A DNA stretch of 43,207 nt from IMG/VR virus record IMGVR_UViG_3300017700_000313, positions 1 through 43,207 of that record, one strand, 5' to 3'. The DNA is from a virus (lineage: Duplodnaviria; Caudoviricetes). Positions 17,306 through 39,997 of this stretch are shown here, in pieces. Every line of letters begins with the position of its first letter. Position 1 is the first letter of the stretch. Position numbers and translations under genes: made by a program. Under the pieces are notes generated by a model. That model was not told the origin of the DNA and did no database searches. It saw only the letters and a program-made list of their open reading frames with translations.

Positions 17306-17814
17306 GCATTCAAAACGCAGCCCACGGAATTGGCAACGCAACTGGCGGCTATGGCAGCAGCACCCCAGATCCACAACGCCTGAAAGAAATTGCTGAAGAT
17401 ATGCGCAAGGGTGTTGAACTTGCTGCTGGCATCGTTGACAAGCGCGAATCTGCTGACCAGATCAGCAAGGTGCTGAATGAGCGCGGTGCTCGCTACGGTG
17501 ACTTCACTCACCATGCTGAGGTTTGCCAGAGCATCAAGAACACGCTGCTGTTCCACCGTTACAGCAAGTATGGCCAGCTGTCTGCTGACAAGAAGCAAGC
17601 TCTTGATGTGATTGCTGACAAGATCGCACGCATCTTGACTGGTGATCCTGAGTACGATGACAACTGGATTGACATTCAGGGTTACGCAAAGCTGGCACAA
17701 GAGCGGCTGCGCAAAGAAGCTGTGTGCGCTCCTGCTCCACAAGCTGCTGCGCAGCCGCCTTACGGCGTTGGCCAGAAGAACTCAATGGTGCGTGGTGATC
17801 GCAACTACGAGTAA
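17302..17814 (+). CDS. DUF6378-family protein (all-alpha nucleotide-pyrophosphatase-like)
   Basis: ERGARYGDF...KIARILTGDPEYDDNWIDIQGYA signature. Confidence 0.75.
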   Translation: MSIQNAAHGIGNATGGYGSSTPDPQRLKEIAEDMRKGVELAAGIVDKRESADQISKVLNERGARYGDFTHHAEVCQSIKNTLLFHRYSKYGQLSADKKQALDVIADKIARILTGDPEYDDNWIDIQGYAKLAQERLRKEAVCAPAPQAAAQPPYGVGQKNSMVRGDRNYE

Positions 17815-17906
17815 GAATTAAGTAGCAATCCTGCTGCTGATCCGCTGGCATATCGGTTATATGCTGTTTGTTTTGTTTGCCTTACTAGGCTTTGATTGGA
17901 ATTGAC

Positions 17907-18374
17907 ATGAGCAACAATGCTGCACTGACTGACTTCGACGCGTTGATGGATGCATCGATGGATGACATTGATGACCTGCCGCCGATTGGCGTACCGCCCA
18001 CTGGCAACTACACGCTGGACATCACAGCCAGTCGTGAGAAGAGTGACAAGGGCAGCGAGTACGTCAAGTTCTCCTACCTGATCGAAGAAGTCAACGAAGT
18101 GAAAGACGAAGCAGAAGCTGGCGACGCAGCTGCTGGTCAGAAGTTCATGGAGATGTTCTCCCCATTCAAGAAGGATGGCACCGTGAATGAGATCGGCATG
18201 GGCATGATGAAAGAACGCTTGGTTCCTTTCTCCGCGCACTTCGGAACTCCCAAGGTTGGCGAGACGCTGACGCAGATCACGAACATCAAGGCTGTTGCCA
18301 GTCTGGTTCGCATGGCAGATCGCAAGGAAGAAGGCCGCTTCCGCTTCGTGCTGAAGGACGTGACCATCCTCTAA
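17907..18374 (+). CDS. Putative ssDNA-binding protein (DUF669-like OB fold)
   Basis: Acidic N-terminus, P.G.Y...I beta-strand pattern, and position near Sak4. Confidence 0.6.
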   Translation: MSNNAALTDFDALMDASMDDIDDLPPIGVPPTGNYTLDITASREKSDKGSEYVKFSYLIEEVNEVKDEAEAGDAAAGQKFMEMFSPFKKDGTVNEIGMGMMKERLVPFSAHFGTPKVGETLTQITNIKAVASLVRMADRKEEGRFRFVLKDVTIL

Positions 18375-18398
18375 TCTGCTGATCGCAGGTTGTGAGTT

Positions 18399-18431
18399 AG
18401 CTCGCTGGGTTACAAGCTCAGCGGGCTTTTT
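18399..18431 (+). terminator. Rho-independent terminator
   Basis: agctcgctggg/ctcagcgggct stem followed by TTTTTGTTT. Confidence 0.75.
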
Positions 18432-18572
18432 GTTTGTGGTGGGTTCGATTCCCACAGTCTAGAGATGGGTGGCGCAGTTCAATTCTGCGAAGGCGATTGG
18501 GGTCTGGTGCCCAGCCGACAACTGCGTAAGCAGCGGGGTTCAGCCAATCTCTAGACACCACAAACAAGAAGC
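18425..18572 (+). ncRNA. Candidate structured RNA with two T-loop hairpins and an ACCA-ended stem (5' leader of DNA polymerase)
   Basis: 16-bp and 10-bp closing helices; hairpins GTGGG-TTCGATT-CCCAC and CGCAG-TTCAATT-CTGCG; GNRA hairpin CTGC-GTAA-GCAG. Confidence 0.7.
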
Positions 18573-18588
18573 TAATCAAGGAGATAGT

Positions 18589-20910
18589 GTGAGTCTGCCA
18601 TTTGTTATTCCCAAGAAGCAGCCAGCAGTTGCAAACGTGCTGACAACTCAAGCTAATGATAAGAGCGCAGCCGGTAAGGTGATTGCGCTTTTTGGTACGC
18701 CTGATGATCGCAGCTTCTTGCCGCAGTTTCGTGAGTTGGTTGGACCTGTTGCACTCAAGGTGCTGCTTGATCCTGTTGAGTATCCAACCTCAATGGCAGC
18801 AAAGATCAAAGCAAATGGCATCACAGATATTATCTGCACCTGCCCTGACACCATGCTCACACTGCTGCGCATGTTGCCTGACTTCCGTCGTCCGTTGAAT
18901 AAGAACGGCAGCTTCAAGAAACTTCCACTTGACGACTATCATGGTAGCTTCGTCACACTCCCTGCGGAAACTCTCAAGACTGACTACGATGTTAAAGTCC
19001 TCATCCTCAATCCGCTCAAGCATCTCCGCACTGTGCCTGAAGCTCCGTTTGTTTTCAAGCGGTTTATCTCTAAGATTACGAAGCCGTCCAGCTGGTTTCC
19101 TCAAACGCAGTTTACGTGGGAAGTCTGGACACCAGCAAAGAGTCAGCAACTACTGGAAGACTTCAGCAAAGCGCGTCTTCTTGCGGTGGACATTGAGACT
19201 TATCATGATGATGAACTACGCCTCATTCGCTGCGTTGGCTACTGCGCTCTTTTTCCTGATGGCAGCACTCACACTGTGGTCGTTCCCTTCAAGTGCATGG
19301 TTGCTCATGCCTTTGTTCGGGCTCTGAATGCTACGCCAGTAGCTAAAATCTTTCAGAATGGAATGTATGACAACCTCTACTTCTGGCGATGGAACGTACC
19401 AGTCACTAATTGGCTTCATGATACTCAGCACATCTTTCACTCGTGGTACGCAGAACTCCCTAAACGCCTCGACTTCATCGCAGCGTTTGCAGTTCGTGAG
19501 ATTAGGTATTGGAAGGACGATGCTGCGGGAAGTGACTACAACGTCTACGAATACAACGGGAAGGATTGCTGGTCTACGATGATGGCATACCTGTCCATCT
19601 TGCAAGAGATTCCCAAGTGGGCACTTGACAATTACCTTGTTGAGTTTCCACTTGTGTTCCCTTGCATTCACATGGAAGGTGATGGCCTACTCGTTAACAA
19701 GGAACGCTTCGAGCGTAACAAGCTGCGGGCAGAAGAGAAGCTCAAGGCTGTTGCTGAGCCACTGGCTAAGTGGTTCGGTCCTAAGTTCAATCCTCGCAGT
19801 CCTGACCAAGTCAAGCGGCTGCTCACTGTGCTTGGCATGGGCAAAGATGTTGACAGTTCCAACGTCAAGGAACTCAACAAGTGTGCTGCTGCGCACCCGT
19901 TCAACGAACTTATCATCTCTGCGATCATTGAGTATCGTGAGCAGGCTAAGCTGCTGTCAACCTATTTCAAGTGGGAGAAATTCTGGAATGACCGACTCTA
20001 TTACAAAACCAACCCGGCAGGTACTGATAGCGGCAGGCTTGCAAGCACTGAGTCAAGCTTCTGGTGCGGGCTACAGATTCAAAACATCCCTGGCGGAACC
20101 GAAGTCAAGGACTGGATCGAGTGTGATGCTGATTGGGACGGACTTGCAGAAGGAGATTACGCTCAATCTGAAGCTCGATGTGTCGGCTATCTTTCTGGAT
20201 GCACAGCTCTCATTGATCTCGTCGAATCCGACAAAGACTACCATTCCTGGAATGCACACAAGTTTTTCGGTGTCGCATACGAAGCTGTCGACAAGAAACT
20301 TAGAGACCTTTCTAAGCGGGTTAACCATGGCAGCAATTACAATATGGGAGCAGCAGTCCTCCTAGATACCATGGGTCCCAAGAAAGCAGCTGAGGCTCGT
20401 ATCTTGTTGCAGCTTCCTGCTAAGTGGACACTCACTCAAGTCTGCCAGCACTTGCTTGACACGTATGCCAAAACATACCCTGAAGTCAAGAAGGATTGGT
20501 ACGACGACCTGACTCGCACAGTGAAGATGACGAAGAAGCTGGTATCACAACTTGGCTGGACTCGTCACTTCTTTGCTGATCCATCAAGCAGCAAGCCTGC
20601 ACTCAATTCAACGGTGGCACATGGACCTCAAAACCTTTCTGCTGGCATTATCAATCAGCGCTTTTACTCTATCTGGCATGATTCTGTTTACGGCGATCTG
20701 CGCGGAAAGGTTCGGATTAAAGCCAACATTCACGATAGCATTCTGTTCACTTATCGTGGGGTGGATACTCCTAGCATCGTACGTGATCGCATGAAAAACC
20801 CAGTACAGATTCGTGATATCAAGGGAGTCACTCGGACAATGCTGATCCCTCCAGATATGTCAGTGGGCAAAGGTGATAAACTTGCTCGCTTCTGGGGAGA
20901 CCTCAAGTAA
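18589..20910 (+). CDS. polA: Family A DNA polymerase with 3'-5' exonuclease and degenerate UDG-like N-terminal domain
   Basis: ExoI VDIET, ExoII QNGMYD, ExoIII YNGKD, motif A DYAQSEAR, motif B RDLSKRVNHGSNY, motif C IHDS. GTG start 5 nt after AAGGAG. Confidence 0.93.
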   Translation: MSLPFVIPKKQPAVANVLTTQANDKSAAGKVIALFGTPDDRSFLPQFRELVGPVALKVLLDPVEYPTSMAAKIKANGITDIICTCPDTMLTLLRMLPDFRRPLNKNGSFKKLPLDDYHGSFVTLPAETLKTDYDVKVLILNPLKHLRTVPEAPFVFKRFISKITKPSSWFPQTQFTWEVWTPAKSQQLLEDFSKARLLAVDIETYHDDELRLIRCVGYCALFPDGSTHTVVVPFKCMVAHAFVRALNATPVAKIFQNGMYDNLYFWRWNVPVTNWLHDTQHIFHSWYAELPKRLDFIAAFAVREIRYWKDDAAGSDYNVYEYNGKDCWSTMMAYLSILQEIPKWALDNYLVEFPLVFPCIHMEGDGLLVNKERFERNKLRAEEKLKAVAEPLAKWFGPKFNPRSPDQVKRLLTVLGMGKDVDSSNVKELNKCAAAHPFNELIISAIIEYREQAKLLSTYFKWEKFWNDRLYYKTNPAGTDSGRLASTESSFWCGLQIQNIPGGTEVKDWIECDADWDGLAEGDYAQSEARCVGYLSGCTALIDLVESDKDYHSWNAHKFFGVAYEAVDKKLRDLSKRVNHGSNYNMGAAVLLDTMGPKKAAEARILLQLPAKWTLTQVCQHLLDTYAKTYPEVKKDWYDDLTRTVKMTKKLVSQLGWTRHFFADPSSSKPALNSTVAHGPQNLSAGIINQRFYSIWHDSVYGDLRGKVRIKANIHDSILFTYRGVDTPSIVRDRMKNPVQIRDIKGVTRTMLIPPDMSVGKGDKLARFWGDLK

Positions 20911-39634: not shown

Positions 39635-39997
39635 TTAAGCAGCAGTACCATCGCCTTGGGTCTTGCTGGCATCATCAGCAGCAGCTTTTTCAGCATTCAA
39701 CACAGCGGCAACGTTTGCCTGCTCGGTGAAGATCATGCTGGCAGACTTGTTGGCCACCTTGTTGAGTTCAGCGATCTGGTCAGCATCGTCAGTCACCAGA
39801 CGGCCACCCAGGAATTGCAGAGCCAGGCCATCGGGCATGATGAACTTGGCACCAGCAACGCGATGGAAGAAGGTCTTGCTGTCGGGATTCTTCAGAGCTT
39901 CAGCAGTGGAAGCTTGGCTTTCACCAGAGCGAAGAATCGTGGGAGCAGGTGCAGCAGCACCAGTACGAGCAGCAGAAGAAACAGTTCCGACAGCCAT
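39635..39997 (-). CDS. Hypothetical virion-associated protein
   Basis: AAGGA RBS; lies between MCP and adaptor. Confidence 0.7.
   Translation of the reverse strand: MAVGTVSSAARTGAAAPAPTILRSGESQASTAEALKNPDSKTFFHRVAGAKFIMPDGLALQFLGGRLVTDDADQIAELNKVANKSASMIFTEQANVAAVLNAEKAAADDASKTQGDGTAA

Follow-up and report, generated by a model that had tools for sequence, protein, structure and literature searches.

A family of small RNAs, which is apparently undescribed and absent from Rfam, is found in bacteriophages that, to judge from their genes, are unrelated to one another. We are nearly certain that the family and its secondary structure are real. The RNA is predicted to fold as two tRNA halves, each circularly permuted and one nested in the other, which together provide two T-arms and two GG loops; the scattered occurrence of the family points to a mobile phage small-RNA gene. 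One member lies in the 43,207-nucleotide stretch of DNA analysed here (the window), a 43-kb virus record from a freshwater phage which has terminal repeats and is complete. All features of the window described below are on its + strand.

The element is situated between a gene for a protein of 155 amino acids (17907–18374) and the gene for a family A DNA polymerase (polA; 18578–20910 including its Shine–Dalgarno sequence). Of 36 related loci, 35 have a homologue of the upstream gene ahead of polA, and the 36th has no upstream DNA; the first-pass annotation had called it SSB, a name which is only putative because the gene has no match in PHROG. It is followed by an intrinsic-terminator-like hairpin with a U tract (18399–18436; stem of 13 pairs at 18399–18427), laid out as in the relatives, the last bases of which double as the 5′ arm of the outer stem of the RNA (P0). 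No sigma-70-like promoter was found in 17700–18700. Downstream, the element ends 5 nt before the Shine–Dalgarno sequence AAGGAG (18578–18583), as had been noted (i.e., 5 nt past 18572), the position of which fits a GTG start at 18589 for a polymerase of 773 amino acids. This polymerase is 29–35% identical to those of Aeromonas phage P5, EBPR podovirus 3, Polaromonas phage Tiera and the Pseudomonas PaP2/119X group, and is a neighbour of the RNA element, lying outside the family. Its residues 1 to about 190 (window 18589–19150) are outside the PHROG polymerase match, yet they are conserved in relatives. There is a further predicted hairpin (18378–18402) right after the stop codon of the upstream gene, a place taken by a different inverted repeat in two of the related loci (L019 and L026).

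The helices, T-arms, hairpins and ACCA that had been read from this stretch are all present. The 5′ arm of P0, a predicted processing stem, occupies 18425–18438, and the outer helix as a whole (18425–18440/18557–18572) has 16 bp, including one G-U. The RNA core (18435–18560) scores 92.2 bits with the family model and is likely to be the mature RNA, by analogy with a member that is bounded by tRNAs (L216). T-arm 1 (18439–18455, loop 18444–18450) is continued by the 5′ strand of an acceptor-like stem, P1 (18457–18466), which pairs over 10 bp with its 3′ strand (18547–18556). Within P1 are P2 (18468–18470, paired with 18543–18545), which is the equivalent of the anticodon stem of the inner module; T-arm 2 (18473–18489, loop 18478–18484); P3 and P4 (18492–18516), which form the loop-closed acceptor-like arm of the inner module and bear a D-loop-like GG at 18506–18507; an optional GNRA hairpin, P5 (18522–18533), in a region that is variable or absent in most members; and a segment (18537–18545) made up of the junction GG (18537–18538), UUCA and the 3′ strand of P2. 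The ACCA (18557–18560), which is not conserved, begins the 3′ arm of P0 (18557–18572). The middle hairpin at 18492–18516 had been recognised as such, but its comparative register, 18500–18503/18509–18512, differs from the one then given.

The minimum free energy of the 148-nt stretch is −68.6 kcal/mol (z −5.66; none of 200 shuffles was equally stable), compared with −62.4 when the stretch is constrained to the family fold. Simulated windows (200, order-2 Markov) contained 0.16 T-arms per window and no pair of T-arms less than 60 nt apart. In agreement with the earlier reading that the element is not a tRNA, ARAGORN called no tRNA in the window and no Rfam family matched at gathering score, the best weak match being to tRNA-Sec (24 bits, the cut-off being 47). 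The suggestion of two folding states did not hold, since the outer helix and T-arm 1 compete for 2 bp only (18439–18440; pair probabilities 0.63 and 0.37 at 18439), which is too few for a switch.

A pattern describing the double T-loop gave the first three homologues. Further patterns were run on viral, metagenome and genome collections, and blastn added the Klebsiella phages KP13-27 and Kpn BU9 as carriers; the stretch from the window itself had only short blastn matches among cultured phages, two of them to the Klebsiella phage records which hold the family. Pattern matches, many of them due to chance, were dropped by inspection and model score, so that 21 of 39 metagenome loci were kept (16 distinct after removing repeats, a duplicate of a viral locus and L186, which is identical to the window) along with 2 of 16 genome loci. 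The family comprises 33 distinct sequences scoring 75.7–126.1 bits with a covariance model built from 30 of them, whereas the best non-member scores 34.8 bits; the three members left out of model building score 81.0, 93.8 and 85.5 bits. Members have a mean pairwise identity of 68%, with four pairs above 90%; no other member is more than 68% identical to the window copy. They match no Rfam family at gathering or E-value thresholds, and the plasmids searched contained no member. No description of the family was found in the literature covered, a coverage that left most subscription papers outside; the spreadsheets of one phage RNA catalogue (PMC10690425) have no match, and the alignments of that catalogue could still list the motif.

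The carriers have little in common besides the RNA: no protein cluster spans more than three of the nine formed by the window and eight viral contigs. The 135 open reading frames within 1.7 kb of 30 other members have assorted Pfam matches (integrase, SSB, ligase, lysozyme, HNH, methylase), among which there is neither a family A polymerase nor a TROVE protein, and no recurring neighbour gene or protein common to the carriers was found. Both of the members from bacterial genomes sit among phage genes, in prophage-like regions. A core chromosomal gene was rejected as an explanation: the RNA is present in one of five genomes in the genus concerned (that of G011), and both genome matches are among phage genes. 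A remnant of a phage attachment site (attP) was also rejected: an integrase gene precedes only two members (L159 and L231), and the helices covary beyond a tRNA fragment. In two loci, ARAGORN miscalls the 5′ half of the RNA as tRNA-Ser(cga), taking T-loop 1 for the anticodon (L159, 2520–2603; L216, 2518–2608), and such miscalls may hide more members in annotations. In KP13-27 the RNA, at about 39680–39795 of the phage record, lies in an unannotated gap of 1.08 kb (L219, 1851–2930) together with a second T-arm element near 2230–2300, and a short frame near 2353–2385 of the same locus presumably resembles a tmRNA tag.

Members share a common order: P0, T-arm 1, P1, a joint, P2, T-arm 2, P3–P4 (with a YGG loop), the variable region, the GG junction, and the 3′ strands of P2, P1 and P0. 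In an unfitted MAFFT alignment, 96.3% of the cells are paired and double changes are seen at 11 of the 21 pairs, so that the covariation in homologues on which the first-pass annotation had staked its reading was found; it exceeds that in all 500 shuffles and in every slid register. Together with the 33 members and the want of a gathering-score match, it bears out the earlier view of a conserved non-coding tRNA-mimic RNA without an Rfam family. Five helices covary, among them T-arm 1 (three of five pairs), T-arm 2 (four of five) and P2 (two of four across the family), and P1 has at least five pairs in 27 of 30 members. The invariance of P3 and of two P4 pairs is partly imposed by the search patterns; members found by patterns without those letters (L230–L234, and L293 for the 3′ strands) also have P3. 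The joint reads AGUAC/GGAA in 17 of 30 members, which we take to resemble the bulged-G motif of the sarcin–ricin loop, whereas the window copy has Watson–Crick pairs there.

In tRNA, the T-loop residues U55 and C56 are contacted by G18 and G19 of the D-loop. The inner module of the new RNA shows a permuted tRNA order, and T-arm 1 with P1 makes a second permuted top half around it. We infer two such contacts: the P4-loop GG is the predicted docking site of T-loop 1, and the junction GG that of T-loop 2. In 27 of 30 members T-loop 1 is canonical, and these 27 are also the ones that have the P4-loop GG; the remaining three combine G55 with A18. A canonical T-loop 2 and the junction GG likewise go together, in 29 of 30 members, both having been lost in the remaining one (L223). 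Every T-loop change is accompanied by a change in the predicted GG partner, and the patterns that found the three G55/A18 variants had left both sites unconstrained. In a ranking by corrected mutual information, eight helix pairs come first and the U55/G18 pair shares ninth place with another pair. Two members (L230 and L231) have a hairpin inserted ahead of the P4-loop GG, which is kept. Each tertiary contact is supported by a single evolutionary event, the G55/A18 change being confined to one branch and the loss of T-loop 2 to one sequence; a scan for further G55 variants found none. That A18 can pair with G55 is our assumption from tRNA geometry, and no paper on such a swap was found in the literature searched. 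Covariation is silent on whether the contacts are made in cis or in trans. On balance, modelling the RNA by analogy with tRNA, we think it probable that both elbows form. This differs from the earlier suggestion of T-loop pairs as in T-box leaders and RNase P; in these, and in the L1 stalk of the ribosome, interdigitated T-loops lock into each other and bind the tRNA elbow. Two T-loops are common to both arrangements, but here they are on full tRNA T-arms of 5 bp and 7 nt which apparently form elbows themselves, and their changes track the GG loops rather than each other. With regard to T-boxes in particular, there is no Rfam match, the terminator is upstream of the element, and the neighbours vary.

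The outer stem has at least 13 pairs in 20 of 30 members (13–24 bp), compared with 17 of 862 swapped controls, and has no shared sequence. Of the ten members that have no long outer stem, only one or two are directly next to a tRNA. L216, which has no outer stem, occupies precisely the interval from a tRNA-Met gene to a tRNA-Leu gene; its bounds map to 18435–18560 of the window, with T-arm 1 included. Another member (L211) comes after a tRNA-Met, and two (L162 and L234) lie 120–140 nt from a tRNA, making 4 of 31 members within about 140 nt of a tRNA gene. A long outer stem would suit RNase III. Because the stem flanks 20 of 30 members and L216 fills a gap between tRNAs, the RNA is probably released, and we think it likely that it acts in trans. 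Release had been proposed before; the 104-nt product then proposed (18457–18560) is not retained, as it would drop the T-arm 1 that is found in all members and in L216.

The explanation which we favour, tentatively and at somewhat below an even chance for the whole, is that of a mobile, released, double-elbow decoy RNA. Transcription would be by read-through of the upstream terminator, which is assumed because no promoter was found near the element, and the RNA would, to judge from its flanks, be cut free by RNase III at the outer stem or by tRNA processing where it lies among tRNAs. The product of 100–130 nt (about 120 bases) would fold into two tRNA-type elbows and would divert, as a trans-acting decoy, host proteins which recognise the T-loop and elbow of tRNA, e.g., tRNA-cleaving defence nucleases. 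Without an anticodon or a conserved CCA, it could soak up elbow-binding proteins and yet stay out of translation. An elbow surface that is conserved twice, with no anticodon, CCA, partner gene or fixed neighbour, fits an optional and mobile trans-acting RNA aimed at an elbow-reading host factor. Defence nucleases that cleave the T-loop exist (Cash), cutting at its UUC motif (PMC13462974), and it is for this reason that we commit ourselves to the decoy. The decoy role itself is a guess, with a substantial but minority chance of being right. Nothing so far links the carriers to hosts with tRNA-cleaving defences, nucleases may cut T-loops poorly if these are buried within the elbows that they form, and, as the terminator is upstream and no promoter was found, amounts of the RNA in the window phage may be low. 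The RNA is also dispensable, as the window copy has no bulged-G-like joint and relatives of the phage do without the core.

A released double-elbow RNA could instead be directed at translation or at tRNA maturation, its targets being the L1 stalk, elongation factors, RNase P or enzymes that modify the T-arm. The structural evidence for this is the same as for the decoy, to which the sarcin–ricin-like joint of 17 of 30 members and the proximity of 4 of 31 members to tRNA genes can be added; given the plain pairs at the joint of the window copy, and the lack of an anticodon and of a conserved CCA, we regard it as unlikely, although not strongly so.

There is a smaller chance that the RNA assembles with itself, T-loop 1 of one molecule docking on the P4-loop GG of another to give dimers, rings or chains. 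A long helical path separates T-loop 1 at one end from the P4 loop at the other, covariation would look alike for contacts in cis and in trans, and no protein partner was found. ROOL and GOLLD, as described in 10.1101/2024.12.08.627333, are phage RNAs without a clear protein partner which are often near tRNA genes and form RNA-only cages, of which the new RNA would be a small analogue. They are several times longer, whereas the new family is far smaller than known cage RNAs and has no Rfam match; no palindromic or kissing loops were noted in it, and the fold is possible in cis.

A similarly small chance attaches to a cis-acting cassette for mRNA processing or stability, in which the outer stem and core direct cleavage of the phage transcript in which they lie or block exonucleases in it. 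The long outer stem in 20 of 30 members would suit this, and so would the relatives without the core, in 24 of 33 of which a hairpin pairing with the U tract is kept at the same spot (rough fold). However, the stem alone is enough in those relatives, so that the core is not needed for this, and one member lies between two tRNAs (L216) while another faces convergent lysis genes (L168). The U-tract-pairing hairpin after the terminator, which occurs with or without the core, is possibly a conserved processing site (window 18399–18436 and the gaps of L001–L036).

It is very unlikely that the element is a polA leader which senses tRNA or switches its fold, although control of polA had been the first suggestion and the element does lie between a terminator and the polA Shine–Dalgarno sequence, with P0 pairing with the U tract. 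The 3′ arm of P0 is transcribed past the point of termination, and the Shine–Dalgarno sequence is outside the element. Moreover, among 36 IMG/VR loci with a related polA, of which 35 include the upstream gene, none of the 35 gaps before polA has a T-arm. The four closest polA relatives keep the terminator plus a hairpin which pairs with its U tract, and two loci (L019 and L026) have recognisable arms of the outer stem enclosing a short loop, with ACTA in L019 at the position of the ACCA. Two public contigs from one study (X2 and X3) have 30 other letters in place of 18436–18573, whereas a third (X10) covers the entire stretch and a fourth (X6) covers it as far as 18532; thus, the core comes and goes between close strains. 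The other 30 members have unrelated neighbours, with no family A polymerase beside them. The gap before polA is also a hot spot for insertions (L002, 2482–3001; L033, 2464–3001; L026, 2780–3001): in L002 and L033 it contains about 400 extra bases which by eye resemble HNH endonuclease genes, and in L026 it contains another insert.

An RNA matured by RNase P to a CCA end (18457–18560), serving as a primer or being aminoacylated, is highly improbable, and the ACCA does not stand as an acceptor-like end. It does follow a 10-bp helix in the window copy, and the 3′ end equivalent to that of L216 would fall at 18560. NCCA, whose partner strand is the conserved UGG ahead of T-arm 1, follows P1 in only 3 of 30 members, and T-arm 2 sits on the 5′ side of the helix, which is opposite to the tRNA order. 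As to the primer that had been proposed, there is no conserved CCA, close relatives are without the core, and the phage already has a primase-family gene. The C4 antisense RNA of P1/P7 (RF01695) and the CI RNA of P4 are small cloverleaf-like phage RNAs released from a longer transcript; the new family differs in that its loops are conserved T and D motifs of tRNA across unrelated phages, not antisense loops, and in having no conserved CCA. RF01695 matched neither the window nor the members scanned, and the control likewise gave no match.

Just as improbable is a divergent Y RNA of the YrlA type, bound by a host Ro60 protein. As described in PMC4201824, YrlA contains a circularly permuted tRNA module ordered as stem, T-arm, loop-closed acceptor stem and D region, and the inner module of the new RNA has this order. 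YrlA (RF02553) shares with it a T-arm, a loop-closed acceptor-like stem, a D-like GG region, a length of about 110 nt and an occurrence in phages. In the new family, the T-arm and the GG loop each occur twice in a nested arrangement, a conserved D stem is missing, and the outer stem is long and variable; the family is also without the Ro60 gene and the 5′ motif of YrlA. No Ro60 (TROVE) gene was found within about 4 kb on the same strand, or elsewhere, in 11 of 11 carrier contigs, six of them at least 90% complete (the control was positive in 2 of 14 genomes), and it is on these 11 carriers that the RNA is judged not to be a Y RNA. The motif GNCGAAN0-1G is upstream of T-arm 1 in 1 of 30 members, although 10 of 30, the window copy not among them, have a match within the core. 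RF02553 matched neither the window nor the carriers tested, and in the scan of five carriers the control genomes were also below the cut-off.

There is virtually no chance that the region codes for protein, with polA starting at 18469: the frame is open from the GTG at 18469, but nothing in 36 polA loci significantly matches the 40-residue extension (best E 0.15), the Shine–Dalgarno sequence fits 18589, and 13 of 30 members have the equivalent frame open while 14 of 30 core lengths differ from that of the window by a non-multiple of three, which marks the region as non-coding.

As far as can be told, the RNA is a variant of the tRNA-mimic kind which would work in the manner of YrlA. tRNA-like RNAs of T4 and T5 with unknown function have been annotated for decades, and tRNA-cleaving defences keep being found. 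In GenBank, T4 rnaC and rnaD and the stable RNAs of T5 (RNA2, RNA1, RNAI, III and IV) are annotated as RNAs of 100–170 nt among tRNA genes, those of T5 as being of unknown function. They were rejected as members, as the best scores with the family model are 18.5 bits in the T5 region and 17 bits in the T4 region. T5 RNA2 (L279, 6460–6584) resembles the new family in having two T-loop hairpins, but these are in normal tRNA order with a terminal acceptor stem.

Other phage loci have two T-arms 14–36 nt apart (L037–L157), and about 410 such stretches are estimated to exist in IMG/VR. Both stems have at least 4 bp in 99 of 121 of these loci, and 75 of the 99 have UGG in the spacer. There are recurring types (L130, L145, L085, L088, L120 and L104; L041 and L066; L060, L069, L136 and L137), including one in tRNA arrays (L046, L049 and L075), and an Rfam scan of 20 loci gave no match except as tRNA.

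The new family is compact and well defined by covariation. Both the fold and the decoy idea are directly testable, since natural mutants exist (the G55/A18 swap, the loss of one elbow, and the loss of the entire core) and one carrier, Klebsiella phage KP13-27, is in culture. Should the decoy idea fail, the architecture would still be new if the model is right: a natural RNA that forms two tRNA elbows by itself. A stand-alone, protein-free double-elbow RNA that moves between unrelated phages may also, though this is doubtful, amount to an RNA-only counter-defence against immunity that attacks tRNA; it would then be one of many multi-T-loop phage RNAs, because so many of the double-T-loop loci (99 of 121) have two intact T-stems.
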